Assembly: GCA_043749505.1 (NCBI GenBank) | Contig: JAYVDI010000084.1 | Coordinates: forward strand, 7,339 to 71,338 | Length of the DNA stretch: 64,000 nt | DNA from: Schlesneria sp. | GTDB lineage: Bacteria > Planctomycetota > Planctomycetia > Planctomycetales > Planctomycetaceae | Direction: 5' to 3' | Part shown: positions 20,011 through 55,197 of the stretch, piece after piece | Layout: each line of letters opens with the position of its first letter | Numbering within the stretch: the stretch's first letter is position 1 | Translations under genes and position numbers: made by a program | Notes under the pieces: model-generated | Told to the model about the DNA's origin: nothing | The model's input: the letters and a program-made list of their open reading frames with translations, nothing else | The model's database searches: none

Positions 20011-20711
20011 ATGACTGCCATGCTGTTGCGTCGTGAGTTGGTAATTGTTGGTCTGATTTCGCTGATGTCGTTCAGCACAAGTTGGTCTCAAGAGAAGAAG
20101 GAAGCCCCCGTCGTGCCGCCGCGCGAGGGGAAGCGGGAGGTGGTCGAGGTCTTCAATGGGAAAGACCTCAAGGGCTGGGTGGGCAACGAGAAGCTCTGGT
20201 CGGTCAAGGACGGAGTCATCATCGGGAAGAACACCGAGGAGGTGAAAGTCAGCACCTATCTGCTGACCGAGAAGAACTACAGCGACTTCCGCCTGACGTT
20301 CGACTTTAAGCTGGCCGAGTCGGAGATGCACTCGGGCATCGCGCTGTGGGCCGCATCGCGCCGGACAAGGGCGACCCGCTGACCTACGCCGGGCATCTGG
20401 TCATGTTTCCGTCGGGCCACGGATTCTATGACCTCTACGGCCGCCAGATGATTCACCAGAACAACGAGATCGCCAAACCGCTTAGCAAGCAACACGACTG
20501 GAACAGCTACGAAATCCTCGCGCAGGGGAACCGCATCCGATTCGTGCTGAACGGCAAACTGATCTCGGACTGGCGCGAGCCGGAGCCGGAACGGATCAAG
20601 GACGCCCCGATCGGCCTCCAGTTGCACTCGAACAAGGCGGCTCAAGAGGTTCAGTTCAAGAACCTCAAGCTGGAGACGTTTCCCGAGGACAAGCTGCTGA
20701 CGGTGAAATGA
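20011..20711 (+). pseudogene. DUF1080 (3-keto-disaccharide hydrolase-like) secreted protein, interrupted by a single-base frameshift
   Basis: ORFs 20011-20382 and 20346-20711 together form one DUF1080 protein (FNGKDLKGW...VKDGVI...NRIRFVLNGKLI...PIGLQLH..VQFKNLKL). The frames join at the G-run in CTGTGGGCCGC near 20347-20350. One extra G would restore ..ALWGRIAPDKGD... ATG at 20011 or 20020. Confidence 0.7.
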
Positions 20712-20907
20712 AGAAGGCGGAGACCCTGTCCTCCGGAATTGACACCGTGAGCAGGTGGGGCCAATGACCACGGTCAGGAACGGAGCTGACATCCCTTTAG
20801 GATTAAGCCGCAGACTTCATCCGCTCAATTGGAATCCTGAATCCTCCCAAAACGTCGGATGAACTGGTTATACCTCTCTCATCCCGGGCCGGGTGAGGCA
20901 TCGCCTC

Positions 20908-22386
20908 TCAAATGAAGGTCTTCAGGTACTCGCGAACGCATAACTTCTTGCGGGTGTTATCGGAACTCATGTATCGAATGGTTCCGTAGATGGGACGCTC
21001 TGGTCCCCACGCGCGGTCGTAACGGCCGAGTACCCAGAAGATGCCGGAGTATGAATTCGGGTTGCGGCCATCGAGGGCGTATTTGTTGTTGAGTTCGATC
21101 ATGACATCGAGAGCGTCCCGAGGCGTTGCGGTCCATTCTAGAATCTTCTTGCCCCACAGCATTCGCAGATAGTTGTGGATGCGGCCTTGGCGAACGAGTT
21201 GTGTTTGCGCGGCGTTCCAAAGTGGATCGTGCGTTGTGGCTGCCGCGAATTGTTCCAGCGAATAAACGTACTGGCGAGGATCTCGCTCATGCTTGGCGAG
21301 AGTCGCTTGTGCCCAATCGGGGAGCGATTCGTACTGGTCGTAATCGTCACGGTGCGAGGTCATGTTGTAGCCCAGCTCACGCCAGGTGATGAACTCATCG
21401 AGCCATGACTCGGCTCCGGGACTCGCGCCCCACCAGCCCTCGCGTTTGCCGCCGGTGTTCTCGCCAAGCGACCCTGGCGACCATTCTTCGCGCGTCATCA
21501 ATTCTTGAAACAATTCATGAGACGAGATGTGGCCGAAGTGTAGATACGGCGAAAGGCCGCTGCGGTTTTCGGCATCGGGATCGTTCGCCCCTGCCGCGTA
21601 CTGTGTGAGATGCTGGTCCAAAAACTTCGTCAAGCGCTGCCGAGCCAGCGTTGATCCACCACGCGCTTCGACGATGCCGACCGAGTGGTCAATCGGCAAT
21701 GCCGCGAGTTCCGCACTGTCGCCAGCCAACAACTTCGCCGACACCGGGGGCCAGCGCGTGGTGATCTCCGGCGGCAGCGACTGGATTGGTGGAAGACGCA
21801 CGCCACTCAAAGGGTTCGGCTTCGGAAATTCTTCAAGATGCGGGAGCAATTGCTTCTGCAGGTAAGCTCGGAACGAGAATGCCGTTGTGAAAACTCGGTC
21901 TGTGGCGCGCAACGGCAGTAGGCCGTTTGAATCCACGGACTCCAGTCGCACCGACAACCGAGATGCCGCTGCCGAAACCATGTGTGGCAAAAAGGCTGAC
22001 GGGAAGTCATCCGTCACGACGACGCAAGCTCGCCGGGCCAACGCCGCCAGCAATCCCTTGTCGGCGTCGGGCCATGGTTCGACATACGGAAAGTACATCA
22101 CGCCGGGATTGTTGAGCGCGGCGATTCGAGCGGCATTTTCGGCCATGCCGTCGATCATGAAGCAATGAATCCGATCGCTCGCCCATCGATACCCGATTCG
22201 TAGTGGCTCGAAGATCACCAGCGGCTTTTGCAACTCAACAGCCAACTCCACCGCGCGTTGCAGGCTGAAATTGGAAGATAGTCGCCGAAATGAGATCATC
22301 CAATACAACACGAATTCGCCGTCCGCTCGAATCGGCGCGTCGTTGCAATTTTGAATGCGAATCTTTGGAACGAGTCTGGCACTCAT
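20908..22386 (-). CDS. phr: Deoxyribodipyrimidine (CPD) photolyase, class II
   Basis: From the ATG at 22386 (MSARLVPKIR...) the protein is 492 aa. YWM..RR N-terminal motif. C-terminal HNYLRMLWGKKILEW...LDGRNPNSYSGIFWVLGRYDRAWGPERPIYGTIRYM is typical of class II. The track ORF extends 162 codons upstream into the neighbouring gene and is not credible there. Confidence 0.85.
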   Translation of the reverse strand: MSARLVPKIRIQNCNDAPIRADGEFVLYWMISFRRLSSNFSLQRAVELAVELQKPLVIFEPLRIGYRWASDRIHCFMIDGMAENAARIAALNNPGVMYFPYVEPWPDADKGLLAALARRACVVVTDDFPSAFLPHMVSAAASRLSVRLESVDSNGLLPLRATDRVFTTAFSFRAYLQKQLLPHLEEFPKPNPLSGVRLPPIQSLPPEITTRWPPVSAKLLAGDSAELAALPIDHSVGIVEARGGSTLARQRLTKFLDQHLTQYAAGANDPDAENRSGLSPYLHFGHISSHELFQELMTREEWSPGSLGENTGGKREGWWGASPGAESWLDEFITWRELGYNMTSHRDDYDQYESLPDWAQATLAKHERDPRQYVYSLEQFAAATTHDPLWNAAQTQLVRQGRIHNYLRMLWGKKILEWTATPRDALDVMIELNNKYALDGRNPNSYSGIFWVLGRYDRAWGPERPIYGTIRYMSSDNTRKKLCVREYLKTFI

Positions 22387-24326
22387 CAGAAATTCAACCT
22401 CCAGAGAGTCAGGTTCAAGATGACGGCGAACGAGGTCCACGCCAGATACGGAACCAGCAACAACGCCGCAGTGCGCGACTTGGCTTGAAACGCGAGACAG
22501 GTCGCGACAATCGAGAGCCAGAGTACGAGGATCTCGGCGAAAGCGAGGCCAGGGCGTTGCAGGCCGAAGAACAGAAATGACCAGAGCACGTTGAGCGCGA
22601 GTTGAATGACAAACCAATTCAATGCGGCCCTCGCGGCACTCCACCCGTGGCCACGCCACACGAGCCACGCGGCGACGGCCATCAGAAAATAGAGAGCAGT
22701 CCAAACCGGGCCGAAGAGCCAGTCGGGCGGATTCCAATTCGGTTTCGCCAGCGTTTGATACCAGCCGCCGACGGATGTCGCCGTGAAGGCCGCTCCCAAA
22801 CCAGCAGATAGGAAGCAGACGGCCATGAAGCCAACCAACCACGCCACCTGTCGAAGCGCGGTCGGTTGCCACGTTGTTGTTTCGACTGAGCGGCGAGCGG
22901 TGCTCGCGATGCCGTTCAGCATGCCGCCGAACACAAACTCATGCAGCGGGTAGATCATGTACCAATAGGCTAAGCCCGTCAGGCCAATCGGATCGAACAC
23001 TGCGGTTTGTCGAATGCGCGAACCGTTGTCCGTCGGCTCGACTTCAAATTCGAGCCACGCTCGGCCGGGAAGTTTCATCTCGGCGGATAGTCGCAAACGG
23101 CGACTCGGTTCCAGCGAATCGACTCGCCAGCAATCGACGGGATCGCCGACTCGCAGATCAACCGCATCTCGCCGACCGCGTCGCAAGCCGACTCCACCGA
23201 CGAGCAAATCGAGCCAGCCTCGAAGTCGCCACAGCCAGTTGCCGTAGTACCAACCGGTTTTACCGCCAATCCGTTGAATCGGAGCGAACGCGGCTTCGAC
23301 CGGAACATCGACTTCAACTTCACGCGAATCGACCAGTCGCGTTCCGAATCGGATTCCACCCCAGCGATTGGGGCGGCCTGAGGCACTGATTGCATCGGAC
23401 CAGCGTGTGGCCGTCAGTTCGTGGTCTTCGTTGACGAGCGCTCGCGCGATGGCGTCGCGGACGCCGCGCGGGCGAATCGCGAACACTTCGTGGGCGTGCG
23501 AGTTCGTGACCACGGTCGGATTTCGCAGGCTCTCGACCAGCTTGCGGCCGATGCGAGCGTAAACGGGAGTCACCAGTCCGAGCCACAAGCTCGACAATCG
23601 TGGCGAAAGAAACGGCACCGAAATCATCCAGCGTTTCAGCCCGCGCTGTCGCGCGTACTCTTGCATGATGTCGCCGTAGGAGACTTGATCCGGACCGCCG
23701 ATCTCGAAGATGTCGCTTGGACCTGCGGGCAAGTCAATCGCGGCCAGCAGGTAGCTCAACAGGTCTTCAATCGCGATCGGCTGCGCCGGTGTTGACACCC
23801 ATTTCGGGCAAATCATCACCGGAAGTTTTTGCACTAACGTTCGGATCAGTTCAAACGACAAGCTGCCGGAGCCAATCACGATCGACGCCCGGAACTCGAC
23901 AACTTGTGCGCCCGATTCGCGCAGGATCGCGCCAACCTCTTGGCGGCTGCGCAGATGTTTTGAGAGTTGCTGCTGCTCGTCACCCAAGCCGCCGAGATAG
24001 ACGATGCGCCGCACTCCGCTTCGTTTCGCGGCTTCGGCAAAGTTGCGGGCGGCGACGCGATCTTCGTCCTCGAAGTCGTTGCCGGTCCCCATCGAATGCA
24101 CGAGATAAAACGCGGTTTCGATCTCTTCGAGAGCAGACTCCAACGTCTCTGGCTGCAACACATCTCCAGCGACAATTTCCGTCTGCGGCCCCACTCGCGG
24201 CTGCAAGAACTCCGGTCGCCGAGCCAGGCAACGAACCTGATGCCCACGCTGTTCTAGCAACGGGATCAATCTTCCGCCGACGTAGCCTGTGCCGCCGGTG
24301 ACAAGAATTCGCGAACCAGCAGACAT
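22386..24326 (-). CDS. Fusion protein: NAD(P)-binding SDR/NmrA-like domain, DUF2867, and C-terminal TspO/MBR (tryptophan-rich sensory protein)
   Basis: 646 aa. N-terminal ILVTGGTGYVGGRL Rossmann motif. Central DUF2867-like region (GKTGWYYGNWLWRLRGWLD). The last ~160 aa form a 5-TM TspO domain (WYQTLAKPNWNPPDWLFGPVWTALY...VPYLAWTSFAVILN). Its stop TGA shares one base with the photolyase ATG (TGATG). Confidence 0.8.
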   Translation of the reverse strand: MSAGSRILVTGGTGYVGGRLIPLLEQRGHQVRCLARRPEFLQPRVGPQTEIVAGDVLQPETLESALEEIETAFYLVHSMGTGNDFEDEDRVAARNFAEAAKRSGVRRIVYLGGLGDEQQQLSKHLRSRQEVGAILRESGAQVVEFRASIVIGSGSLSFELIRTLVQKLPVMICPKWVSTPAQPIAIEDLLSYLLAAIDLPAGPSDIFEIGGPDQVSYGDIMQEYARQRGLKRWMISVPFLSPRLSSLWLGLVTPVYARIGRKLVESLRNPTVVTNSHAHEVFAIRPRGVRDAIARALVNEDHELTATRWSDAISASGRPNRWGGIRFGTRLVDSREVEVDVPVEAAFAPIQRIGGKTGWYYGNWLWRLRGWLDLLVGGVGLRRGRRDAVDLRVGDPVDCWRVDSLEPSRRLRLSAEMKLPGRAWLEFEVEPTDNGSRIRQTAVFDPIGLTGLAYWYMIYPLHEFVFGGMLNGIASTARRSVETTTWQPTALRQVAWLVGFMAVCFLSAGLGAAFTATSVGGWYQTLAKPNWNPPDWLFGPVWTALYFLMAVAAWLVWRGHGWSAARAALNWFVIQLALNVLWSFLFFGLQRPGLAFAEILVLWLSIVATCLAFQAKSRTAALLLVPYLAWTSFAVILNLTLWRLNF

Positions 24327-24372
24327 TAGTGAGATCTCGATGACGAACCGGGAACGGCAAACACGATCAACG

Positions 24373-24406
24373 CGAAAACACCTGAACCGAACGACGGCTC
24401 AGGTGT
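24373..24406 (-). terminator. Rho-independent terminator of the fasciclin gene
   Basis: On the minus strand: ACACCTGA, a 13-nt loop, TCAGGTGT, followed by TTTTCGC. Confidence 0.55.
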
Positions 24407-24468
24407 TGTTGCAGAGTTGGCAGGGAACTCCGGCGAGCACCGGTGCGGGGAAACACACTCGACCACTA

Positions 24469-25491
24469 TTAGCGACGGAAGTGTCGAGTTTGGACCAGAG
24501 AGTATGTCACTCGACCGGTGGTCGGACAGACGTTCGACACAATTGTCGGCTGAGACGGCATGACGTGTGAAGTCTTCACCGTGGCGGCTGGAGGTAACAT
24601 CACACTGTCAATCACATGAATGACTCCGTTCGAGGCATCAATGTCGGTCGCGATGAGTCCGGCACCGTTGATGGTCGCCGCACCGTTCTTCATCGCGGTG
24701 GTCAACGTGCCGCCATGAACGGTCTTCAATTCCGCCTTGCTCAGCACTTCGTTGGAGAACACTCGACCCACGACAACGTGAAACTTCAGAATTGCCGCGA
24801 GCTTCTCTTTGTTCTCGGGTTTGAGCAGGCTCTCGACCGTACCGGCTGGCAGCTTCGCAAACGCTTCATCCGTCGGCGCGAAAACGGTCAGCGGCTGATC
24901 GCCAGCCAACACTTCCACGAGACCAGCGGCCTTAGCAGCCGCGAGCAACGTCTTAAATGTTCCCGCCTTGGATGCCGTCGCTGGAATGTTGTCCGCAGAG
25001 GGCAGCAGCACTTGATCGATCACGTGAATGATCCCATTCGAGCAATGAATGTCGGCCTTCACGACGGTCGCTTGATCGACTCGCACGTTGCCATCCTCGG
25101 TCTTGATGTTCACTCGCTGTCCATTCACCGTCACTGCGGCATTCAGCTTGACGACCTGAGCCGCCGCCACGTTGCCAGCCACGACGTGATACGTCAGCAC
25201 CGACACGAGTCGGGCTTTGTTTTCCGGTTTCAGCAGCGTCTCCACCGTTCCGGCTGGCAGCTTGGCGAATGCTTCGTCGGTCGGAGCAAGAACCGTGAAC
25301 GGCCCATTGCCTTGCAGTGTTTCCACCAACCCGGCGGCCTTCAAAGCTGCCGCCAACGTCTTGAACGACCCCGCCTCCACTGCCGTCGTCACAATGTCTT
25401 TGCCCGCCGCATCCGCAGCCATCAAGCTGCCTTGAGTCAGGCTGATCGCCGCCGCTGCGGCCACACTTAAAAAGAATCTTCGATTCAACAT
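24469..25491 (-). CDS. Secreted fasciclin (2 x FAS1) domain protein
   Basis: 340 aa with a signal peptide. Two FAS1 repeats, each with [13 protein letters not shown] / [17 protein letters not shown] and NG(I/V)IHVID motifs. Confidence 0.85.
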
Positions 25492-25856
25492 GTCGCTCTC
25501 CCCAATCTCTAGTTCTGGAACTTCCTGAACGATGCCCGACCTGAAATAAGTCGTTCAAATCGTTCAGTTTGATTCAGACCGCCTTCGCCCAAAAGGCTTA
25601 ACCAGATTCTTGATTATTTCAATTTATACTTCACGCAACCAGCTCGCCTAGGTACCTCTTCCCATCGCGGCGTAAAGTCGGTTGTGCGTGGTCACCCAGA
25701 TTCGAGTGTGACTAGGCGTTCGTCCGGCCACCAGGTTTTTGACGGTAAATGAACGTTTTGGATGTTTTTTGTGTTGAGGGTCTTCGCGACTGACGGTAAT
25801 GTCTCAACCAACTTGGAAAGTCCGACAAATTCACCAGTCCGCTTTTGAAGCGAGTC

Positions 25857-26762
25857 ATGCAACACCTTCTCTCACCAAAGCAAGTGGCCACTGCGATTGG
25901 GGCCAGCGAATCATCGCTCAAGCGGTGGTGCGATCAGGGATTATTGACGACGGTGAAGACGGCGGGCGGGCATCGTCGGATTTCGGTTCAAGAAGCTTTG
26001 CGATTCGTGCGCGAGCACAATCATGCGGTCGTCGAGCCGCGAATCCTGGGGATGTCTGCCACGGATGACCGAAAGGCACGTCGGATTGAAGGCTGTGCCG
26101 AGCGCCTGGCAACGGCACTGCTCACGAACAACGAGCAAGCCTGCCATGCCATCGTGTTCGATCTGTTTCTGGCTGGTCAGCCGGTGAGCCAAATCTTTGA
26201 CGAAGTCATCGCCGTGGCATTTCGGACCATCGGTGAGAAGTGGGAATGCCACGAAGCCGACATCTACGAAGAGCGGTGCTCGTGCCAGATCGCCTTGCGG
26301 ATCTTACATGAACTGCGGTCGAAGCAGACGCCGCCGAACTCGGGTCTCGTCGCGTTGGGGGCGACCATTGAAGGGGATCAGTACTCGTTGTCGGTGACGA
26401 TGTCCGAGATTGTGCTGCGCGCGGTCGGCTGGGATGCCCGGCTGCTCGGTTCGTCGATCCCGTTTGATTCGATGGCGAATGCCATCCAGCAGCATGAGCC
26501 GCGAATGTTGTGGCTCAGCGTTTCGTACATCCCGAACGAGCCGGCCTTCATCGCCGGTTTCAATCGCTTATCCGAGGCCGCGTCCAAGACCAACACCGCT
26601 GTCGTTGTTGGCGGGCGAGCGTTGACGACCGAGATTCGGACGCGACTCCGCTACTCCGCCTTTTGCGACACGATGCGGCATCTCGAAGAGTTCGCCAATA
26701 CCTTGAGTCGGCAAGCGGAGATTGCTCCCAAGAAAACTCGCAAACCACGAAAGAACGCTTGA
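25857..26762 (+). CDS. HTH (excisionase/MerR-type) regulator with B12-binding-like helical and Rossmann domains (CarH/LitR-like architecture, non-canonical motifs)
   Basis: N-terminal LLSPKQVATAIGASESSLKRWCDQGLL..GGHRRI HTH. Middle helical bundle IGEKWECHEADIYEER. C-terminal flavodoxin-like domain VALGATIEGDQYSLSVTM...WLSVSY...VVVGGRA. ATG at 25857 (the track uses a TTG at 25845). Confidence 0.7.
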   Translation: MQHLLSPKQVATAIGASESSLKRWCDQGLLTTVKTAGGHRRISVQEALRFVREHNHAVVEPRILGMSATDDRKARRIEGCAERLATALLTNNEQACHAIVFDLFLAGQPVSQIFDEVIAVAFRTIGEKWECHEADIYEERCSCQIALRILHELRSKQTPPNSGLVALGATIEGDQYSLSVTMSEIVLRAVGWDARLLGSSIPFDSMANAIQQHEPRMLWLSVSYIPNEPAFIAGFNRLSEAASKTNTAVVVGGRALTTEIRTRLRYSAFCDTMRHLEEFANTLSRQAEIAPKKTRKPRKNA

Positions 26763-26769
26763 GGCACCG

Positions 26770-28086
26770 ATGACATTCGCTCGATTCGATCTCGCCGTAG
26801 CCACGTTCGCCAGAACGTGGGTTTTCTCGTGTGTGGCCCATGTTGTGGTGAACGCGGCTACGACATTGTTTGCCGCCAATCCCACCGCGACGTGGCCGCA
26901 GTGGCGCGGTCCGTCGCGTGATGGGCAAGCGGCAGTGACGCCCGCGTGGCCGGATCAGGTCGATGAGGCGGCGCTCACTCGAAAATGGCGTGTCGAATTG
27001 GGACCGAGCTATTCCGGGCCGATCGTCGGCGAGGATCGCGTTTTCGTCACGGAGACTCGCGGCAAGAAGACCGAGGTCGTGCAGGCATTCTCGCGAACCG
27101 ACGGCCAAGTCTTGTGGTCCGCCGAGTGGCCGGGTGCGACATTGGTTCCGTTCTTCGCTTGGGAGAACGGCGAATGGATTCGAGCGACTCCGGCCTACGA
27201 CGGCGAATCGCTGTTCGTTGCGGGAATGCGCGATGTGCTGGTTTGTCTCGATGCCGCGAACGGCAAGGAACGCTGGCGAGTTGATTTCGTCGAGCGGTTC
27301 GAATCGCCGTTGCCAACGTTTGGTTGCGTGTCATCTCCGCTGGTCGATGGCGAGCATGTTTACGTTCAGGCCGGAGCTTCGTTCGTGAAGCTCAACAAGC
27401 GAAACGGCGAGACAGTCTGGCGGTCGCTGCAAGACGGTGGCGGTATGAACGGCAGCGCGTTCTCGTCGCCCATGAAAGCCACGATCGCGGGACAGCCGCA
27501 GTTCTTGGTGCAGACCCGCGAGAAACTTGCGGGCGTTGACGAGGCCACTGGCAGCGAACTCTGGTCGCAGAAGATCGAAGCCTTTCGCGGCATGAATATC
27601 CTTACGCCGGTGGTGTTCGGGGATTCGATTTTCACGAGTACCTACGGAGGCAAATCTTGGCTGTACGATCTCACAAAAAGCGGCGATGTGGCCGCTGCCA
27701 GCATGAAGATGTCGGTGACCGAACGCTGGCAGAACAAAACTCAAGGTTACATGTCCACACCGGTCGTCATCGACGGGCACATCTATACGCATTTGAAAAA
27801 CCAACGTTTCGCGTGCATCGACCTCGCGACGGGCAAGGAACGCTGGGTGACCACGCCGTTCGGCAAGTATTGGAGCCTCGTCGCACAAGACAAAAAGATT
27901 CTGGCCCTCGATGAACGGGGCGATTTATTCCTGATTTACGCCAATCCGATGAAGTTCGAGTTGCGTAGTCAGCGTCACATCAGCGATTCGCCAACGTGGG
28001 CGCATTTGGCCGTTTGCGGCGAGGAAGTTTTTGTTCGCGACCTGAACGGGCTGACGAGCTTTCGTTGGTCTGCCACGCAACAGTAA
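26770..28086 (+). CDS. PQQ-like / BamB-like beta-propeller repeat protein, secreted
   Basis: WPQWRGPSRDGQ start motif and repeated V(F/Y)V...G.L.ALD..TG...W blades. The ATG at 26770 is 7 nt after the regulator stop. Confidence 0.75.
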   Translation: MTFARFDLAVATFARTWVFSCVAHVVVNAATTLFAANPTATWPQWRGPSRDGQAAVTPAWPDQVDEAALTRKWRVELGPSYSGPIVGEDRVFVTETRGKKTEVVQAFSRTDGQVLWSAEWPGATLVPFFAWENGEWIRATPAYDGESLFVAGMRDVLVCLDAANGKERWRVDFVERFESPLPTFGCVSSPLVDGEHVYVQAGASFVKLNKRNGETVWRSLQDGGGMNGSAFSSPMKATIAGQPQFLVQTREKLAGVDEATGSELWSQKIEAFRGMNILTPVVFGDSIFTSTYGGKSWLYDLTKSGDVAAASMKMSVTERWQNKTQGYMSTPVVIDGHIYTHLKNQRFACIDLATGKERWVTTPFGKYWSLVAQDKKILALDERGDLFLIYANPMKFELRSQRHISDSPTWAHLAVCGEEVFVRDLNGLTSFRWSATQQ

Positions 28087-28100
28087 AGGATGACGCCATC

Positions 28101-29387
28101 ATGAAGATCGCGATCATCGGAGCCGGAATTTCCGGGCTGACCGCGGCGTATCAACTCAGTCTCTCCCATGACATCACGCTGTTCGAGGCCAACGACTATC
28201 TCGGCGGGCACACGAATACCGTCGAGGTCGATTTGGAAGGAGAGCGGCAGGTGATCGACACCGGGTTCATCGTGTTCAACGACTGGACGTATCCCAATTT
28301 CATTGAACTGTTGAACGAACTCGGCGTCAGATCGCGGCCGACATCAATGGGTTTCAGTGTTCGATGCGATGCTGCGAACTTGGAGTATAACGGTTCGTCG
28401 CTGAACGGACTGTTTGCCCAACGACGGAATTTACTGCGGCCAAGCTTCTATCAGATGCTGGCCGACATTCTGCGATTCAATCGCGACGCTCCCGAGTTGG
28501 TGCAGAGCGGCCCAACGACCGATGAAACAACGGTTGGTGAGTTCCTCGCGCGGCAGCGTTACTCGCGTGAGTTTGCTGAGCATTATCTGCTGCCGATGGG
28601 AGCCGCGATCTGGTCGTGCCCCGTCGGGATGTTTGAAAGATTTCCGATCCGGTTTATCGTCGAGTTCTACCGCAATCATGGTTTATTGAGCGTTCGCAAT
28701 CGACCAACGTGGCGAGTCATTGAAGGTGGTTCTCGGAATTACGTCGCAAAAATGGCGGAGCGGTTTCGAGATCGCATTCGTCTCAGTACGGCGGTTGAGT
28801 CAGTCCGCCGCTCGGCAGATGGAGTGGTCGTCGTCCCGCGAAATCACTCGCCGGAAACCTTCGATCATGTTGTCTTTGCCTGTCACAGCGACCAAGCCTT
28901 GCGGATGTTGGCGGATTCGACCTCGACCGAGCGCGACGTGTTGTCCGAATTTCCTTACGGACGCAACCTCGCCGTACTGCACACCGATCAAGCGGTCCTG
29001 CCGAAGCGGCGGCGAGCTTGGGCGAGCTGGAATTATCATCTTGCCGGTCCGTCATCGAATTCTGCCAGCCAGGTGGCCACGGTGACCTATCAGATGAACC
29101 TTTTGCAGCATCTGCAATCAAAGCACGTCTTCAACGTGACGCTCAGCAACGCGACGCTGAACAACGACGAACGAATTGACCCGGCTAAGGTGCTGCGGCG
29201 ATTTGAATATCACCATCCGATCTTCACCGTTCAGCGTGCTGCCGCGCAGGCTCGGCATTGCGACCTAATCAACGTTAACCGGACTTCCTTCTGCGGCGCG
29301 TACTGGGGCAACGGCTTCCATGAAGATGGCGTCGTCAGTGCCCTGCGCGTTTGCGATGCTCTTTTGCCAAAGGAGTCGCGGGCATGA
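28101..29387 (+). CDS. FAD-dependent oxidoreductase (amine oxidase / phytoene-desaturase-like)
   Basis: [19 protein letters not shown] dinucleotide-binding motif directly at the ATG at 28101. The length and C-terminal [12 protein letters not shown] motif are typical of the family found next to DUF1365/CFA genes. Confidence 0.85.
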
Positions 29388-30226
29388 GAAGCTGTCTTTA
29401 TGAAGGTGTCGTGCAGCATCGACGGCTCGATCCGATTGAGCATTCATTTCGATATCGGTTGTTTCTCGTCTTCGTGGACTTGGCGGAACTGGACTCGATA
29501 TTCGGGCGACGCGGCGTCTGGTCCACTCGCTGGCCAGCACTGGCGCGGTTCCGGCGTGCCGATTATTTGGGAGAGCCAACTCGCCCGCTGAGCGACTGTG
29601 TCCGCGATTTGATTGAGCAGAGAACCGGGCATCGTCCAGCCGGACCGATCGGGCTGCTGACCAATTTCCGCTACTTCGGCTTCGGCATGAATCCGGTCAG
29701 TTTTTATTACTGCTTCGATACGGCTGGCGAACGAGTTGAAACCGTCGTCGCGGAAGTCAGCAACACACCGTGGAATGAGAAGCACTGCTATGTGTTGAGC
29801 TTCACAGGCTGGGACGCTGCTCCAACCGATTTGCACGATGAGCAGACCGGGACGGAGTGCCAAGGGGCAGGGCGGTTCGAGAACCCAAAAGAGTTTCACG
29901 TTTCGCCGTTCATGCCGATGGACATGACCTATCGCTGGCGAGTCAGCGAGCCGCGCGAACGGCTGGCGGTGACCATCGAGAACTATTCGAACGACATCAA
30001 ACGATTCGACGCGACGCTGTCACTACAACGACGACCGATCACGCGCTGGCAGCTTGCGCGCGCATTGTTGCGATATCCCTTGATGACGATGCAGGTTTTT
30101 CTGGGCATCTATTGGCAAGCGCTGCGGCTGTGGCTGAAGCGAGTCCCGTATGTGCCTCATCCACGACGTGCCGTCCCGACGGCGGCTGAGTCACAACTTT
30201 CATCCTCGAAACAAGCGACATTATGA
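29384..30226 (+). CDS. DUF1365 family protein
   Basis: [23 protein letters not shown] is the N-terminal signature I associate with DUF1365. ATGA overlap with the upstream stop. Confidence 0.8.
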
Positions 30227-31551
30227 GCACAGCGTGCGCGCCCCAGTTATCGAATCCTCCCACGAACTCGTCGTCGAACGATGACGACTGCGTAGCTGCA
30301 CCGGATCGCATGGGATTCGTGAGCCGGTTAGCCCGACGACTGGTGTTGCAGAAACTGCAAGAGTTGAACGGTGGGACCATTCAATTAGCCGATGCGACTG
30401 GCGCAACGACGCTCGGTCGCGGCGGCGACTTGCAAGCGGCGTTGCAAGTCCACAACCCGGCGTTCTTTCGTCATGCGGTTCTGGGCGGAAGCCTGTCGGT
30501 GGCCGAGTCGTATCTGCGTGGCGATTGGGACTGCGACGATCTGACGGCGTTCCTTCGGATCTTTGTGCGGAATATCGAGGCAACGGATCAGCTCGATCGC
30601 GGGCTATCGCGAATTGGCAAATGGGTCAATCGTCTGTATCACCGCTGGCATGCGAACAGTAAATCGGGAAGCCGTCGAAACATTCACGCTCATTACGATC
30701 TCGGTAACGAGTTCTTCCGGCTGATGCTCGACGACACGCTGGCGTATTCGAGTGGCATCTTTTTATCGCCCACCAGCACGCTGCGCGAGGCTTCGCTGGA
30801 GAAGATGGATCGCATTTGTCGCAAGCTCGATCTGCGTGCGAATGATCATCTGCTGGAGATCGGCACCGGCTGGGGTGGGTTGGCAATTCACGCGGCCAAG
30901 CAGTTCGGCTGCCGCGTTACGACGACCACGATCTCGCAGCAACAGTTCGATGTCGCTCGCCAACGAATCGACGAGGCGGGACTAACGGATCGCGTGACGT
31001 TGCTGTTGCAGGACTATCGCGACCTGACAGGCCAGTTCGACAAACTGGTCTCCGTCGAGATGATCGAAGCGGTCGGGCATCAGTACTACGACACTTACTT
31101 CCGCAAATGCAGCGAGTTGCTTAAGCCCGAGGGGACGTTCGTGCTGCAAGGGATCGTGATGCCGGATCGTCGCTATGCCAAGTATTTGAAATCGGTGGAC
31201 TTCATCCAGAGATACGTCTTTCCCGGCGGTTGCCTGCCTTCGATGACCGCGATGTTGGAGTCGATGTCTCGCGTCACCGACTTGCGGTTCGTTCACGCCG
31301 AGGACTTCGGCACGCACTACGCTCAGACTCTGCGCGAATGGCGGCAACGATTTCATGAGCGACTGGATGATGTTCGCGGGCTGGGCTTTCCCGACCGATT
31401 CATTCGCATGTGGAACTACTACCTCAGCTATTGCGAGGCAGCGTTCGACGAACGATTTACCGGCGTCGTCCAAATCCAATTCGACAAACCACGGTGCCAA
31501 CGCGACCCGCTCGCGATCGGGTCGCGCGCCGCGGCATGGAGGTCGGCATGA
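30223..31551 (+). CDS. Cyclopropane-fatty-acyl-phospholipid synthase family SAM-dependent methyltransferase
   Basis: [21 protein letters not shown] (SAM motif I), [10 protein letters not shown] and [14 protein letters not shown] are typical CMAS motifs. ATGA overlap with the DUF1365 stop. Confidence 0.85.
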
Positions 31552-32597
31552 GCCTGATGTCCTTGGGAATTGAAGCCGTGGAACGAGGTTTGATCCCGGA
31601 TGTGATTACGCGCGTGGCGATTCGGCGATTGTGCGAGCAGCGCCTGCGTGAATCCAATCGCGGCAGCGACAACGCCGATTCAAGGGAATTCCAAGCGTTC
31701 GTCCAGTCGATGTGCGCGGGGCCAATCGCACCCGTTCCAGAGAAAGCCAACGAACAGCATTACGAATTGTCGCCGGAGTTCTTTACCGCCGTACTCGGCC
31801 CGCATCGCAAATACAGCTCATGCTTTTGGCCGACCGCAGACACGTCGTTGGTTGATGCCGAGGCGGCGGCACTCGAAATCACTTGTCAGCGAGCCGAGCT
31901 GGCCGATGGCCAACAGATCCTGGAACTCGGTTGCGGCTGGGGTTCGCTGTCGCTGTGGATGGCCGAGCGGTATCGAAACAGTCGCATCACGGCAGTCTCG
32001 AATTCGGCTCCGCAACGGCGATTCATCGAATCGGAAGCGGCCTCACGCGGCCTCACGAACTTGCACCTTATCACCGCCGACATGAACCAGTTCGCCACTG
32101 AGCCGCATCGATTTGACCGTGTTGTCTCGGTGGAGATGTTCGAGCACATGCGGAACTACGAATTGCTGTTGGAACGAATCGCGTCGTGGCTACGACCGGA
32201 AGGCCGGCTGTTTGTGCATCATTTCTGCCATCAAAGACTCGTGTACCCGTTTGAAACCGACGGCGATGCCAACTGGATGGGCCGCTACTTTTTCACCGGC
32301 GGTTTGATGCCGAGCGAGAACATGCTGCGGCAGTTCGACCGGCACATGACGGTCGTCGAGCAGTGGCGGTGGGACGGCACGCACTATCAACGCACGTCCG
32401 AAGCGTGGCTCACGAACTTGGACGCTCATCGCCGCGAGGTGTTGCCGATCCTCGCCGCGACTTACGGACGCGATGAGGCTCGCCGCTGGTTTCACCGCTG
32501 GCGTTTGTTCTTTCTCGCCGTATCAGAGTTATTCGGCTACGCGAACGGCCGCGAGTGGTTCGTGTCGCATTCGCTGTTGCAGCTGAATGGGAAGTAA
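31548..32597 (+). CDS. Second CFA-synthase-like SAM-dependent methyltransferase
   Basis: HYELSPEFF, ILELGCGWGSLS, VSVEMFEHM and YFFTGGLMPS motifs. The ATG at 31548 overlaps the upstream TGA (ATGA). Confidence 0.8.
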   Translation: MSLMSLGIEAVERGLIPDVITRVAIRRLCEQRLRESNRGSDNADSREFQAFVQSMCAGPIAPVPEKANEQHYELSPEFFTAVLGPHRKYSSCFWPTADTSLVDAEAAALEITCQRAELADGQQILELGCGWGSLSLWMAERYRNSRITAVSNSAPQRRFIESEAASRGLTNLHLITADMNQFATEPHRFDRVVSVEMFEHMRNYELLLERIASWLRPEGRLFVHHFCHQRLVYPFETDGDANWMGRYFFTGGLMPSENMLRQFDRHMTVVEQWRWDGTHYQRTSEAWLTNLDAHRREVLPILAATYGRDEARRWFHRWRLFFLAVSELFGYANGREWFVSHSLLQLNGK

Positions 32598-32600
32598 ACT

Positions 32601-33419
32601 ATGACACCACTGACCGCGATGCTGCTGAACTCAGTGCTGGTCGTGATCGCTGTGATGACGTGCTTGTGGCTGCTGAGCCTCGCTCGCCGCGACGCCAGTA
32701 TCGTCGATCCTTTTTGGGGAACCGGGTTCATCGTCGTGACGTGGTTCACGCTGACAGGGATTCCAGCAGCGCAAGCGGTCGAGCGGTCGTGGTTGCTCGC
32801 CACACTGACGACGATCTGGGGCTTGCGGCTGTCGCTGTATCTGCTGTGGCGAAACCGGGGACACGGCGAAGACCGACGGTATCGAGCGATGCGCGAATAT
32901 CACGGGCCGCGTTTCTGGTGGGTCAGTCTGCTAACGGTTTTCCTGTTGCAGGGACTCATCCTGTGGATCGTGTCGATGCCAATTCAAGCCGCGATGGTCG
33001 CAGCGGCATCGAAGCCACTCGGCTGGCTCGATCTGGCCGGCGCAAGCTTTTGGAGCATCGGCCTGTTCTTTGAAGCGGTCGGAGATTTTCAAATGGCTCG
33101 TTTTCAAGCCAATCCACAAAACGCTGGCCGAGTCATGGATCGCGGCCTCTGGCGACTGACTCGGCACCCGAATTACTTTGGCGATTTTTGCGTCTGGTGG
33201 GGGCTGTACTTGATCGCCGCTGCGGGCGGTGCCGCATGGACGATCTTCAGCCCGCTGCTGATTTCGTTCCTGCTGCTGAAGGTTTCCGGAGTGACACTAT
33301 TGGAGAAAACCATCACCAGTCGTCGTCCCGAATATGCGGCCTACCAAATGCGAACCAGCTCATTCTTTCCGTGGCCACCGAACGCGTGTCGCGCTGATCG
33401 CTCGCCTCGTCCCCAATGA
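32601..33419 (+). CDS. DUF1295 (steroid 5-alpha-reductase/ICMT-like) membrane protein
   Basis: 272 aa, multi-TM, with RDASIVDPFWG and RHPNYFGDFCVWWG motifs. It starts 3 nt after the upstream stop. Confidence 0.8.
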   Translation: MTPLTAMLLNSVLVVIAVMTCLWLLSLARRDASIVDPFWGTGFIVVTWFTLTGIPAAQAVERSWLLATLTTIWGLRLSLYLLWRNRGHGEDRRYRAMREYHGPRFWWVSLLTVFLLQGLILWIVSMPIQAAMVAAASKPLGWLDLAGASFWSIGLFFEAVGDFQMARFQANPQNAGRVMDRGLWRLTRHPNYFGDFCVWWGLYLIAAAGGAAWTIFSPLLISFLLLKVSGVTLLEKTITSRRPEYAAYQMRTSSFFPWPPNACRADRSPRPQ

Positions 33420-34804: not shown

Positions 34805-35129
34805 TCCATCGGAATCGACATCCCAAGGGCGTTGATTGAATAGCTTCTTGGTCGCAAGTAGACTGCGACGGTCAAGTCGAATTTCTGGATTGGGCTGATT
34901 TGGCGAAGTTCTCCTATATTAACGGGAGTTAGAAAGTGCGGCGATTGATCCGGTTGGTCGGGTCGGTGTCGTGCTGAGTCCGAGGTGGGTTCAAAGACGA
35001 TAGATTGAGGCCGTGCGAGGTCGCCCTGGTGATGGGGTGCTTCGTCGGATTGATGATCGAAATGATAAATCGTGCTGTGAGTCGCATCGGACGGTTTTGA
35101 AACACGGAAAAATTCAACGGAGTGGTCTC

Positions 35130-37349
35130 ATGGGCAATCGAGCAATTCAATCAACACAGGCGATGCGGCCGCAGTATTGGCGGGGACGAAACTGGGCACG
35201 CGGCTTGGCCGCACTCGGCGTGGTGGCGGGTGTGGTCACGGGGACTTGGGCCGTTGAAGAGGCGACGAAATCGGGGCCTCCCGGTTTGAGGGGAATTCTG
35301 TCGAACGTGGCTCCGGCGGCGCTCAGCGTCGAGGAATTCGCGAAGCTCGACGGGACTTGGACTGAGTGGTCACAGGGAGCGGCGGCGGCGGTCACGGATT
35401 TCTACGCCAAACTCGATTCGTCGGACTCGAAAGAACAGCGTGCGGCGCTCGACCTGTTAAAGCGGAAGCTCGATGTGATGCAGCGGGCGATCAGTGATGC
35501 CAAGTTTGCGTCTTTGCATGACCCGTTGATTGCGCTTCACAATCGACTTGCTCGTCGCATCGACTTCGCGGAAGCGACGCTCGACACGATTGAGATGGAC
35601 CCGGTGGCCGCTCGTGCGGCGAACCTCGCCAAGGCTGGACAGGCAATTGCCTCATCCACTTCGGCGCTGCGAAGCTATCTGAATGGGATTGGCGGCGGTG
35701 GTCCGTGGCTTTCGTATGTGAAAGCGGACCAACTTGGCGCTGCACTGGCCAAGGGAGTCGATAGTGAAGCGGCGATCACGGCGGCAAAGTTGAGCAAAGA
35801 GAAGATCTCGGGACGAACGACTTTGACCGCTGAAGACCAGAAGCAGTTTCTCGGGCGACCGGCATTTCTCGCTTATGAAGCCGCCGTCGATCAGTACCTC
35901 ACCGTGGCGAATTGGCAGGCTCCGGCAGATGCCACAGAGCAGTTGCGAGGACAGCTCAAGGGTCTGTTCGATGCGACCGATGCGTACGCGGAATCGCGAG
36001 CCAAGGAAGATGCTGGCAAAGTGCGGACGGCGTATGCGGCGATCCGCAAACTCGCGCCGGATGGTGGCGAGCGGCTGTCGGCCGTTCTTCAGAAGTACCT
36101 CTTCAATTACAACAGCCGCATCGTGGCGAGCGAAGAATTTTTGAACCGATTGCTTTCGGATGCTCGCACCGAAAATGGGCAGGTCGTGGACAACGTGCTT
36201 GGGGCACAGGTCAGCGGTTACCAGACGACTTCGACGACTGTTGGTGTCGATCTTCGGCCCAGCCCGAACACAGCTCGATTTGACTTGGCCTTGTCGGGGA
36301 CAATTCAGTCCAACACGGTCGGTGTGACGAGTCAGGCAACGGTCCAGACCTCGGGTTATCACACGTTTCTCGCGGCGAAGGGGATCACCTTCGACGGCCA
36401 GAAATTCGTCACATCTCCCGCCACGATCTCGGTGAACCCACACAACACGACGACGGGGATCTCAACGAATGCCGGGGGCTTCCTGTTTGGAGGGATCGTC
36501 CGCGACATCGCTTCCAAGGAAGTGGAAGCTCGACGCGGCCAAGCCGAAGCGATCGCCGCAAGTCGCGTGCAAGATCGCGTGCTGCCCAAGTTCAACGAGG
36601 AAGTCGATCGATCATTCGCTGACGCGACCGTCAAGATTGAGAAGGAAGTGTTTGCGGGACTCCGTGCGGCGGGGCTGTATCCTGACGCGATCACGTACCA
36701 ATCGACGGACACCGCGTTGCGGGTGAATTCACGTTTAATGGGAATGGGTGAACTGGGAGCCGACTTGCCTCACAGCGGCCTCGCTTCGGATCGCGGAGCG
36801 ACGGTGATGCTCCACGAGTCGGCCATCAACAACTCGATCGACCGCATGGAACTCGCGGGACAGACGCTGAACGACACCGAACTGCGGGCGAAGATTGAAG
36901 CGTTCCTCAGTAAGGCTCTGAACCGAGCCGTGAAGTTAGACGCGGTCAAAGCTGTGGCAGACGAAGGTGATGAAGCCAAGTCGCTGAGCGCGATTTCGTT
37001 CGCACCTGCCGATCCGATGCGCGTCCGCCTCGAAGGGGGCGAATTGGTGTTGGTGATCCGCGCGGGCTTCAAGCAGGAAGGGAAAGACGACATTCCCGTG
37101 CGCGAGATCGTGGTGCCGATCGCCTTTGAAGTGAAGGGCAAGCAAATCGTGGCGACGCGCGGCAACGTGGCGTTTCCCGAGGGTGGCGGCCTCGCGACGA
37201 ACGGCGTGATCCGCAAAAAGATTCAGTCGGTCCTGCCCGACCGCACGCTCGATGGCAAGGTTGACATCAAGGGGCCGAACAAAACGGTCACCGCTTACGT
37301 CTCGCGAATCAAAGTGGCCGATGGCTGGATTGGAATTACAGTGAATTGA
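35130..37349 (+). CDS. Hypothetical membrane-anchored protein (N-terminal TM, long helical region, beta-rich C-terminus)
   Basis: ATG at 35130 with GGAG 8 nt upstream. It has coding-like composition over 740 aa. No family was recognised. Confidence 0.6.
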   Translation: MGNRAIQSTQAMRPQYWRGRNWARGLAALGVVAGVVTGTWAVEEATKSGPPGLRGILSNVAPAALSVEEFAKLDGTWTEWSQGAAAAVTDFYAKLDSSDSKEQRAALDLLKRKLDVMQRAISDAKFASLHDPLIALHNRLARRIDFAEATLDTIEMDPVAARAANLAKAGQAIASSTSALRSYLNGIGGGGPWLSYVKADQLGAALAKGVDSEAAITAAKLSKEKISGRTTLTAEDQKQFLGRPAFLAYEAAVDQYLTVANWQAPADATEQLRGQLKGLFDATDAYAESRAKEDAGKVRTAYAAIRKLAPDGGERLSAVLQKYLFNYNSRIVASEEFLNRLLSDARTENGQVVDNVLGAQVSGYQTTSTTVGVDLRPSPNTARFDLALSGTIQSNTVGVTSQATVQTSGYHTFLAAKGITFDGQKFVTSPATISVNPHNTTTGISTNAGGFLFGGIVRDIASKEVEARRGQAEAIAASRVQDRVLPKFNEEVDRSFADATVKIEKEVFAGLRAAGLYPDAITYQSTDTALRVNSRLMGMGELGADLPHSGLASDRGATVMLHESAINNSIDRMELAGQTLNDTELRAKIEAFLSKALNRAVKLDAVKAVADEGDEAKSLSAISFAPADPMRVRLEGGELVLVIRAGFKQEGKDDIPVREIVVPIAFEVKGKQIVATRGNVAFPEGGGLATNGVIRKKIQSVLPDRTLDGKVDIKGPNKTVTAYVSRIKVADGWIGITVN

Positions 37350-40366: not shown

Positions 40367-40843
40367 ATGCGTTTTCTCCTCATTGATCGAATCACCGAGT
40401 TGGTGCCGCATCAGTCGGTCTCGGCCCTCAAAAATTTGTCGCTGTCTGAAGAATATCTCGCTGACCACTTCCCCGGTTTTCCTGTCATGCCTGGCGTCCT
40501 GATGCTTGAAACGCTGGTTCAGGCGGGTGGGTGGCTGATTCGGCACTCAGAAGACTTCGCCCAAAGCACCATCCTGCTGAAAGAGGTGCGGGCGATCCGA
40601 TACAACAACTTCGTTTCCCCTGGGAACACGCTTCAGGTTCAGATGACTGTCAGGAAGCGAGATGGCGGCGTTTGGGACTTCACCGGAACTGGAACGGTGA
40701 ACGGGACATCGGCAGTTTCCGCCCGGCTGACTCTCGAAGCCTTCAATCTCGCTGATCGTAATCCCGAGTTGGCCGAATCTGATTCCCACCGCCGAGAGGT
40801 CTATCGCGGCCTCTTCCAGCAAATCTGGAAGCCTGCGGCTTGA
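40367..40843 (+). CDS. FabZ/FabA-like 3-hydroxyacyl-ACP dehydratase (hot-dog fold)
   Basis: MRFLLIDRI...EEYLADHFPGFPVMPGVLMLETLVQ is the typical dehydratase active-site region. Confidence 0.8.
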   Translation: MRFLLIDRITELVPHQSVSALKNLSLSEEYLADHFPGFPVMPGVLMLETLVQAGGWLIRHSEDFAQSTILLKEVRAIRYNNFVSPGNTLQVQMTVRKRDGGVWDFTGTGTVNGTSAVSARLTLEAFNLADRNPELAESDSHRREVYRGLFQQIWKPAA

Positions 40844-40949
40844 TGAATGAAATTGGGGAAGCTCTGCGAACTGCAGAACATTCACGCTAGAACAACAACA
40901 CGACAGATCCAAATCGACCGACGATTGTGCGATGAAGGGTGACTCTTCG

Positions 40950-41705: not shown

Positions 41706-41901
41706 TCGTCAGCCATCAAGGTAAATTGAAAAGCGGGAATTGGCTGCGTTGCCTCAAGGTGGCGTGGCTATGAGATAAGTGTGGGTTCGATTGGCCGGAG
41801 CCTTGCCCCGACGGTCAATCGCCGATTCAGGGGCGGCAAAGAGCGGGACGGTGGTTCGCGGGCTGGGTGTTCGCCGAACTGCCTCCTCAGGAGAAATTGG
41901 G

Positions 41902-42300: not shown

Positions 42301-42390
42301 TTGGCCGAGTCGCGGCGTTGAGGCGAGTCACTTTGTCTCGAGTGCGTCCCGGTGACGGATCGTTGCCGGTGACGCCCCGAAGGGTGTGTC

Positions 42391-42888: not shown

Positions 42889-42930
42889 GCGCGGTTGCGA
42901 TTCAAGTTTTGGTGGCGAGGAGAGAATCAC

Positions 42931-52521: not shown

Positions 52522-55197
<2,676 letters not shown>

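Follow-up and report, generated by a model that had tools for sequence, protein, structure and literature searches.

In Rhodobacter, the sigmaE regulon contains a photolyase gene, cfaS/ufaM and RSP1091-1090 (PMC7074977), and the LitR regulons of Pseudomonas contain phrB, a short-chain dehydrogenase/reductase (SDR) gene, an FAD oxidoreductase gene and ufaM (PMC9758184). In Mycobacterium kansasii, phrB-tspO and two fasciclin genes are induced by light (PMC9861118), and in Chlamydomonas a fasciclin-like gene, DUF1365, DUF1295, CFA1 and a coclaurine-N-methyltransferase (CNMT)-like gene are induced by singlet oxygen (PMC4067076). These four reports and a fifth (PMC5241685) are the precedent for light or singlet-oxygen induction of the components considered here. 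We describe an island of ten genes in a 64-kb window, i.e. the whole stretch of Schlesneria sp. contig JAYVDI010000084.1 that was analysed, in whose numbering the coordinates are given. The island forms two outward-facing arms around a 365-nt divergent region (25492-25856), and it is probably the core of a planctomycete photoprotection regulon under the regulator encoded at 25857-26762.

An open reading frame (ORF) map, Pfam and NCBIfam scans and a check of start codons reproduced exactly the ten genes, the 365-nt region and the gap sizes given in a preliminary description of this DNA. The plus arm has the order regulator, PQQ_2/BamB-like propeller, FAD oxidoreductase, DUF1365 protein, two methyltransferases and DUF1295 protein, with intergenic gaps of 7, 14, -4, -4, -4 and 3 nt; the minus arm, read from the divergent region, consists of fasciclin, an SDR/NmrA-DUF2867-TspO fusion and a class II photolyase (Table 1). 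The planctomycete context proposed earlier agrees with the closest loci (93–96% regulator identity), which come from metagenome-assembled genomes labelled Schlesneria (Planctomycetota). The preliminary description also likened the set of oxidoreductase, DUF1365, cyclopropane fatty acid (CFA) synthase-like and photolyase genes to the Rhodobacter sigmaE-ChrR and Pseudomonas LitR regulons, and the five plus-arm enzymes from the FAD oxidoreductase to the DUF1295 protein have orthologues with 37–53% identity in proteobacterial clusters. The partners it called extra (TspO fusion, fasciclin and propeller) are all present, but fasciclin and TspO are not new to light responses (PMC9861118, PMC4067076).

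The predicted operator and its conservation

A scan of one genome per GTDB species detected at least 572 relatives of the regulator, and the best 80 loci, all from records labelled as planctomycete lineages, were analysed. Analysis of 8-mer enrichment in 77 regulator upstream regions yielded TCGTTCA cores, a given 8-mer being present in 25–32 of the 77 regions against about 1 expected, and 54 of 83 pairs of neighbouring cores had a spacing of 9 nt. The consensus, AAWTCGTTCAAATCGTTCA, has as its unit a tandem 9-bp direct repeat (AAWTCGTTC x2). BldC protomers bind head-to-tail on 9-bp direct repeats with the consensus AATTxxxxC (PMC5859096). The fit of the conserved element, with its 9-nt period, to this BldC code provides independent support for an operator, and the AAWTCGTTC tandem repeat is likely the sequence to which the regulator would bind.

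Only two sites above 20 bits were found in the window with the position weight matrix (PWM) of this element, O1 and O2, both located in the divergent region; the next best scored 17.9 bits, and shuffled sequence gave about 0.2 sites at a looser threshold of 14 bits. O1 consists of two 9-bp direct repeats and a degenerate third at 25567-25576, and its centre is 67 nt upstream of the fasciclin start. The centre of O2 is 98 nt before the regulator start, and O2 has the orientation to its gene that O1 has to fasciclin. More than 20 loci have a site homologous to O1 in front of a fasciclin gene, and sites about 87–100 nt upstream of the regulator, in the orientation of O2, occur in about a dozen loci (including L002, L008, L017, L019, L021, L023, L025, L029, L030, L031, L039 and L052). 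The third-best match in the window (52523-52541, 17.9 bits), at the 3' end of gyrB, is probably due to chance.

In 1.12 Mb of related loci, 112 of the 135 PWM sites (at least 18 bits) are located in the 450 nt that precede a regulator, fasciclin, ufaD or photolyase gene. In many loci the operator lies 62–89 nt upstream of the fasciclin gene, even where this gene is several kb from the regulator (L003, L038, L043 and L050). In distant relatives the repeat immediately follows a TATAAT box, about 30–45 nt before the regulator start, a position which is typical of a repressor and suggests promoter occlusion; we therefore infer repression rather than activation. The presence of the same operator on both arms is what co-regulation by the adjacent regulator predicts.

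Two further elements of the divergent region may belong to its promoters. When 18 fasciclin upstream regions were aligned by eye, 15 of them had the motif GTTAA-N15-16-CGGT, and it is on this conservation that the putative promoter next to O1 is based, since one hit of GTTAA-N15-17-CGGT in the window against 0.49 expected is not significant alone. An exact 9-nt direct repeat, TGACGGTAA, is present at 25740-25748 and 25791-25799, 51 nt apart in the regulator-proximal half, with the first copy abutting O2; its two copies are possibly promoter elements.

For gene linkage we used the 32 loci that extend 8 kb or more to either side of the regulator. Of these, 21 have the five-gene ufa module (the last five genes of the plus arm), 15 the propeller, 12 fasciclin, 11 the TspO fusion and 4 the photolyase, and only one has none of these. 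In eleven loci the ufa module is accompanied by one or more minus-arm genes. The direction of the ufa operon varies: 23 loci have it running with the regulator and 23 have it divergent. Of all 80 loci, 40 have the propeller, which in 38 of them immediately follows the regulator, and the TspO fusion is inside the regulator operon in some loci (L059, L076 and L078). Flanking the island in the window are housekeeping genes for pyruvate dehydrogenase E1/E2/E3, type III glutamine synthetase (GSIII), a xylose-isomerase-like protein and a P-type ATPase. The island genes accompany the regulator even in loci where it is just 44% identical, whereas the flanking GSIII and xylose-isomerase-like genes are found only in the closest relatives. 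Since the island genes persist while the flanks change, the arrangement is not due to chance; that the genes have been reshuffled and yet remain behind the same operator is the mark of a regulon. Adjacency by chance in this genome alone, which the preliminary description had named as grounds for giving up its proposal, is thus contradicted by the loci that combine the two arms and by the retention of an own operator by fasciclin genes that have moved away from the regulator.

A scan of metagenome contigs for the exact operator gave at least 120 loci. Twenty-six of the matches listed have island homologues; among those listed, a regulator lies within 500 nt in 20 cases and fasciclin in 9, and most of the other matches, on short or low-GC contigs, are probably due to chance. 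The sole recurrent new neighbour among the matches listed is a sigma-70-family gene. A sigma-70-family sigma factor with regions 2 and 4 is encoded on the minus strand, divergent from the regulator, in L036 (~8690-9600), L057 (~8680-9630) and L075 (~8770-9700), and in the metagenome loci L134, L150 and L183 such a factor likewise shares the operator region with the regulator. The operator is about 40 nt before the start of the sigma gene, suggesting that these lineages have a cascade like LitR-LitS; the window is without a sigma gene of this kind. Also absent from the window, and found in several close relatives, is a short ORF (MLVLTRKTDQEIVI...VRLGIVAPKE...) located between the upstream operator and the regulator (L003 ~9735-9900, L012 ~8250-8420), the product of which we take to resemble a CsrA-type RNA-binding protein.

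The regulator and its sensor domain

The light-response signature published for CarH-type photoreceptors comprises GxxW, EH, GxxH and GxxxP, with W131, E141, H142 and H177 as the key residues of TtCarH (PMC11796333, PMC9304148). The Wx9EH motif of the four-helix bundle caps the 5'-deoxyadenosyl group, and both histidines of the signature define CarH and are required for function (PMC9304148, PMC11796333).

The regulator of the island consists of a BldC-type winged helix-turn-helix (wHTH), a CarH/CtMerR-type four-helix bundle and a Rossmann B12-binding fold. Its closest solved relative is CtMerR of Chloracidobacterium (8JBS, E 2e-24), the match to TtCarH being weaker. Foldseek searches with an AlphaFold2 model (predicted local distance difference test score 89.9) returned as top matches the cobalamin-binding domains of CtMerR and TtCarH, with template-modelling (TM) scores of 0.83–0.86 (0.86 for CtMerR) and root-mean-square deviations of 2.3–2.7 Å, and the two-subdomain cobalamin-binding fold on an N-terminal wHTH is thus present. 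The DNA-binding domain matches NF033787 (HTH_BldC) with E 4e-8, under the curated cut-off; residues 3–46, with the KRW recognition helix and the wing GGHRR, align with BldC (6ama), and the domain aligns to CtMerR (8jbs) as well as to BldC.

The counterparts of the light-response signature in the regulator are GEKW, ER, GDQY and GSSIP, so that both histidines are replaced: the protein carries Wx9ER instead of Wx9EH and DxYxxS instead of DxHxxG/P. Among the 80 relatives (44–96% identity), W129, E139, R140, D174, Y176, G198, P202, S221, G252 and G253 are invariant. Position 140, His in CarH, is therefore Arg in 80 of 80, and the lower axial His of the classic B12 motif (D/ExHx2G/P-x41-SxT/V-x22-27-GG) is Tyr176 in 80 of 80, DxHxxP having become DxYxxP in these relatives, while D174, S221, S223, G252 and G253 of that motif are conserved at the correct spacing. 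A profile search of 1.84 billion cluster representatives gave 876 clusters at E <= 1e-30. In the best 150, which were inspected, residue 176 is a Tyr 137 times, a Phe 7 times and a His once, and residue 140 is an Arg 136 times and a His 13 times. Since the replaced residues and those of the pocket are invariant across the 80 relatives, the loss of the histidines is, judging from these alignments, not decay. The regulator, which had been described as CarH/LitR-like, is thus CarH-like in fold and architecture but lacks both of the histidines that define CarH, and its DNA-binding domain is of the BldC type.

It is possible, and we put it forward tentatively, that the planctomycete regulators are a new CarH-derived sensor class, which would bind a tetrapyrrole in an unprecedented way and report light or singlet oxygen by a chemistry other than Co-C photolysis with His ligation. 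The corrin pocket would then have been kept (GxxW, Glu, GxxxP, SxS and GG are invariant), with the lower axial His changed to Tyr/Phe and the upper-face His to Arg. The conserved pocket scaffold argues for a bound ligand. With Tyr/Phe in the axial position, ligation of a metal by this residue is disfavoured; Tyr176 as a haem- or cobalt-ligating residue is a weakened candidate, Phe being found there in 7 of the 150 representatives. Candidate ligands are i) base-off/His-off cobalamin, ii) cobalamin linked to a thiolate via Cys131 or Cys143, and iii) a porphyrin or haem photosensitiser. If this sensor class exists, the regulon would tie porphyrin handling (TspO) to photosensitiser sensing.

A somewhat doubtful alternative is that the B12-like domain is cofactor-free or serves oligomerisation only, and that photo-oxidative stress is sensed by Cys thiols or the signal is delivered by a partner, as in CarA-CarS or class II LitR-LOV. 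Cys25, in the recognition helix, is conserved in 79 of the 80 relatives and corresponds to Ser or Ala in CtMerR and BldC; Cys143, Cys270 and Cys131 are conserved in 79, 75 and 72, respectively. B12-independent relatives of CarH exist (PMC9304148, PMC9758184). In addition, a paralogue with 55% identity to the regulator adjoins a divergent DCC1-like thiol-disulfide oxidoreductase gene in L081 (7291-7740, 11104-14199) and L082. However, Cys131, Cys143 and Cys270 are only 47–71% conserved in the wider family, which also weakens the idea of a universal Cys redox switch, no conserved partner gene lies beside the regulator, the propeller is exported, and the invariant Gly, Pro and Trp positions of the corrin pocket are hard to explain without a ligand. 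The paralogue in L081 and L082 is located near a UvrA-like gene and not near ufa genes, indicating that the regulator family pairs also with redox and DNA-repair genes.

The lipid operon and the minus arm

Furan fatty acids are made by four enzymes: UfaD, an FAD/NAD-binding, phytoene-desaturase-like protein whose gene lies beside ufaO; UfaO, a DUF1365 oxygenase; UfaM, a CFA-synthase-family methylase which makes 11-methyl-12-trans-18:1 and not cyclopropane; and FufM, a second methylase, about 26% identical to UfaM, which converts the monomethyl into the dimethyl furan fatty acid (PMC7380195). In R. palustris, RPA2571-2570-2569 are adjacent, with RPA2569 being ufaM (PMC7380195), and the order FAD-DUF1365-CMAS of the window is that of ufaD-ufaO-ufaM in R. 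palustris, with the UfaD-type gene overlapping the DUF1365 gene by 4 nt. Both methyltransferases had been regarded as CFA-synthase-like, which applies to the first (CMAS 292 bits; 286 bits to NF008686, under the cut-off of 400). The second, which shares only 29% identity with the first, is closer to plant CNMT (E 2e-74) than to the E. coli CFA synthase (E 6e-31). An identity of 37.9% has been reported between FufM and LIME1 (AT4G33110), a CNMT-like Arabidopsis protein (PMC10940516), and through this transitive link the second methyltransferase is best read as FufM-like, in which case the operon would be a complete operon for dimethyl furan fatty acids.

Plasmid-borne clusters of Salinivibrio (MerR-phrB-NTF2-SDR-FAD-DUF1365-CFA) and Burkholderia (ECF sigma/anti-sigma-DUF1295-SAM-MT-lipocalin-FAD-DUF1365-CFA, with ECF for extracytoplasmic function and SAM-MT for S-adenosylmethionine-dependent methyltransferase) were used as proxies for the Ufa and FufM sequences. 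Identities to the proteobacterial clusters are 48–53% for the FAD oxidoreductase, 38–39% for the DUF1365 protein and 42–46% for the CFA-family methyltransferase, and in the Burkholderia cluster the second methyltransferase has a counterpart with 49.6% identity (a class I SAM-MT) and the DUF1295 protein one with 37%. The presence of orthologues of all five window genes in these clusters indicates a known, widespread enzyme module that is under different regulators in different lineages. RSP1089, which by synteny was considered as a CFA-like gene, was dropped, as it is listed as a GPH symporter in the literature (PMC7074977).

A role of the operon in general adaptation to membrane stress, with acyl chains modified otherwise than to furans (cyclopropane, methyl-branched or other), is unlikely. 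The first methyltransferase does score best with models of CFA synthase, none of which separates UfaM from Cfa, and our literature search found no report of furan fatty acids from planctomycetes nor any paper connecting Planctomycetes with CarH-type regulation. However, the gene overlaps of 4 nt and the phylum-wide co-inheritance with UfaD- and UfaO-type genes, whose sole demonstrated role is in furan fatty acid synthesis (PMC7380195), as well as the gene order shared with R. palustris, favour the furan products. A fatty-acid or polyketide-type cluster (40367-44214), encoding a FabA-like protein, a FabG-like SDR, an acyl carrier protein, a second FabA-like protein and a beta-ketoacyl synthase, is located 7 kb downstream of the island, and in L083 ketoacyl-synthase genes likewise flank the regulator locus.

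On the minus arm, the fasciclin protein looks exported, its N-terminus (NRRFFLS) resembling a twin-arginine signal. In the fusion protein, Pfam detected NAD_binding_10/NmrA (residues 5–150), DUF2867 (328–469, 126 bits) and TspO_MBR (500–643, 165 bits), the last being a complete five-helix TspO domain (PF03073, profile positions 1–145 of 145). This three-domain architecture is found in nearly all of the 120 best homologues (at least 62% identity), a few of which miss one domain; a literature search for a YbjT-TspO fusion turned up no paper. The third gene had been called a class II photolyase, and the family assignment stands, with 340 bits to TIGR00591 (phr2), under the curated cut-off of 550 bits, and with E values of 1e-67 to 1e-54 to its best relatives in the PDB (8oet and 2xry of Methanosarcina mazei at 1e-67, and 3umv of rice), the alignment to the M. 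mazei entries spanning residues 20–490, i.e. showing full-length similarity. We take these M. mazei and rice proteins to be class II photolyases. The start had to be moved: the 654-aa ORF listed is over-extended, since the family match starts at its residue 172 and an ATG at 22386 shares one nucleotide with the TGA stop codon of the TspO fusion, giving a gene from 22386 to 20908 for a 492-aa product. Such an overlap indicates that the photolyase is translationally coupled to the fusion. A 171-aa ORF (20277-20792, minus strand) without a Pfam match lies 115 nt downstream of the photolyase gene. Conservation of this ORF is confined to the closest relative (L002, 78%), and it is possibly part of the minus-arm transcript.

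Rfam and tRNA scans of the island gave no matches. Elsewhere in the window, three long ORFs are without any Pfam match: 35013-37349 (778 aa), 45678-47069 (463 aa) and 50675-51787 (370 aa).

Table 1. Genes and predicted elements of the island
Feature	Position	Strand	Basis
Class II cyclobutane pyrimidine dimer (CPD) photolyase, 492 aa	20908..22386	minus	TIGR00591 and PDB relatives
YbjT-like NAD(P)-binding SDR + DUF2867 + TspO fusion, 646 aa	22386..24326	minus	Pfam
RNA hairpin with a 13-bp stem and then a U-rich tail, in the spacer of the fasciclin and TspO fusion genes	24377..24407	minus	
Fasciclin protein	24469..25491	minus	Two FAS1 domains; Pfam Fasciclin 256 bits
Predicted operator O1, AAGTCGTTCAAATCGTTCA	25548..25566	plus	PWM 32.7 of max 34.9, best in window
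Promoter-like element GTTAAG-N15-CGGTCT	25576..25602	minus	Conservation; ends 9 nt before O1, fasciclin direction
Predicted operator O2, AAAACATCCAAAACGTTCA	25750..25768	minus	PWM 21.2, second best in window
Regulator, 301 aa	25857..26762	plus	HTH_17, B12-binding_2 and B12-binding (Pfam, NCBIfam)
Exported PQQ_2/BamB-like beta-propeller, 438 aa	26770..28086	plus	PQQ_2 155 bits; BamB matches distant, E 4e-8
UfaD-like FAD-dependent fatty-acyl desaturase candidate	28101..29387	plus	Amino_oxidase 99 bits; NAD_binding_8
UfaO-like DUF1365 protein, candidate furan-ring-forming oxygenase	29384..30226	plus	PF07103 285 bits, full length
UfaM/CFA-synthase-family SAM-MT, 442 aa	30223..31551	plus	CMAS 292 bits
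FufM/CNMT-like SAM-MT, 349 aa	31548..32597	plus	CNMT 6gkv, E 2e-74
DUF1295 membrane protein	32601..33419	plus	DUF1295 243 bits; weak likeness to steroid 5-alpha-reductase, ICMT and PEMT families

Proposed regulation and comparison with known systems

We propose that the regulator binds the tandem 9-bp repeats head-to-tail as an oligomer, in the manner of BldC, at operators situated at or just downstream of the two divergent promoters, O1 serving fasciclin and O2 the regulator's own operon, and that in the resting state both arms are repressed. A light-derived or photo-oxidative signal would inactivate the regulator via its CarH-like sensor domain. Derepression would then supply i) the CPD photolyase for ultraviolet damage and TspO for the handling of photosensitising porphyrins, both through read-through from the fasciclin promoter, ii) UfaM, UfaD, UfaO and the FufM-like enzyme, which in this order would convert phospholipid-bound monounsaturated acyl chains into mono- and probably dimethyl furan fatty acids that scavenge singlet oxygen, and iii) the DUF1295 protein and two exported proteins, fasciclin and the propeller, with an envelope function that we do not assign.

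Several points weigh against this proposal. Strong linkage to the regulator is confined to the ufa arm, the photolyase being nearby in just the 4 loci mentioned. The 142-nt gap between fasciclin and the TspO fusion holds a strong hairpin (-26.2 kcal/mol, z = -3.86, 0 of 200 shuffles equally stable) and no operator, so that the TspO fusion and photolyase are possibly a separate unit here; if the two are co-transcribed with fasciclin, as we suppose, the hairpin is possibly a partial terminator or stabiliser which sets the ratio of fasciclin to TspO/photolyase expression. A scan of the island for sigma-70 consensus promoters gave 3 hits against 4.2 expected, i.e. no more than chance, and the results of this promoter and terminator scan were set aside. 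The sensor is without the B12-photoreceptor residues of CarH, and light as its input is inferred from the content of the regulon. Finally, sequence models do not discriminate UfaM from a true cyclopropane synthase.

Two other explanations fare worse than those weighed in the preceding sections. A conventional CarH, with base-off/His-on adenosylcobalamin (AdoCbl) and a dark tetramer released by green or blue light, would account for the full architecture, the TM scores to TtCarH and CtMerR and the invariant pocket motifs; it is nevertheless very unlikely, as the lower axial His is Tyr in all 80 relatives and Tyr or Phe in 144 of the 150 cluster representatives and the His of Wx9EH is Arg in all 80, both residues being functionally required (PMC9304148, PMC11796333). 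That the arms are independent, with the regulator controlling its own operon only and the minus arm constitutive or controlled elsewhere, would fit the finding of minus-arm genes with the regulator in only about one-third of loci but is hardly credible, given that the top-scoring operator of the window is the one near fasciclin, that fasciclin genes several kb away from the regulator still have an operator at a constant distance, and that the TspO fusion can lie inside the regulator operon.

The gene content of the island belongs to known biology, which here is gathered at a single locus; the new part is the regulator subfamily, with its BldC-type wHTH and His-less CarH-type domain, and its 9-bp direct-repeat operator. 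If the regulation is as proposed, this would be the first defined light or photo-oxidative regulon of Planctomycetota, with an operator usable for genome-wide regulon mapping, and the 876 clusters would form a large family of CarH-like proteins unable to use the canonical His-on AdoCbl mechanism, raising the wider question of light or redox sensing by B12-type domains and possibly providing new optogenetic parts. Nearly the whole cross-kingdom singlet-oxygen set (UfaD/O/M, FufM/CNMT-like, DUF1295, fasciclin, TspO and photolyase) would be under one operator, its unassigned members (DUF1295, fasciclin, the YbjT-TspO fusion and the propeller) could be tested in one genetic system, and dimethyl furan fatty acids would be predicted in a phylum without an earlier report of them.

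Among the known systems, CarH and class I LitR (Thermus, Myxococcus, Bacillus), which are AdoB12-dependent repressors released by light, share with the regulator the MerR-superfamily wHTH followed by a helix bundle and a Rossmann B12 fold and, as predicted here, tandem direct repeats overlapping promoters, autoregulation and photoprotective targets. They differ in that the wHTH here is of the BldC/HTH_17 type and not of the RxWERRY MerR type, the repeats are 9 bp instead of 11 bp, Wx9ER and an axial Tyr replace Wx9EH and an axial His, and the predicted targets are furan-fatty-acid, photolyase and TspO genes instead of carotenoid genes. CtMerR of Chloracidobacterium thermophilum (8JBS/8JBT), a validated B12 photoreceptor found by SignatureFinder, has the same BldC-like DNA-binding domain and fold but keeps EH and GxxH where the planctomycete family has ER and GDxY. 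BldC of Streptomyces has a homologous wHTH and 9-bp repeats (AATTxxxxC) matching AAWTCGTTC; unlike the window regulator, it is a stand-alone domain of 68 residues without a sensor, and it is a developmental regulator.

Regulators of the light systems of Pseudomonas (class II LitR, i.e. PplR/PmlR, with short-LOV) and of the MerR-like/ChrR blue-light response of Vibrio are LitR-related and lie beside phrB, SDR, FAD oxidoreductase and ufaM genes, but the photolyase in these systems is class I, whereas that of the island is class II. Class II LitR keeps only the helix bundle, has an unrelated C-terminus and needs a LOV partner (PMC9758184). Since the regulator here has both B12 subdomains, it is not a class II LitR; no LOV gene adjoins it among the neighbours inspected, and BLASTP gave no hit between it and the regulators of these systems, to which the Salinivibrio plasmid cluster is assigned. 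It thus differs in type both from these and from sigmaE-ChrR, as the preliminary description had held. The sigmaE-ChrR regulon of Rhodobacter (Cereibacter) sphaeroides has orthologous enzymes in common with the island (photolyase, ufaD-ufaO and a CFA-family methylase), but it is under ECF sigma/anti-sigma control, is distributed over several loci and is without FufM, TspO, fasciclin and propeller. The M. kansasii and Chlamydomonas (SAK1-dependent) gene sets together comprise nearly the whole content of the island; there the genes are scattered, with unrelated regulators and no known operon or operator link, whereas in the planctomycete they are brought together at one locus.

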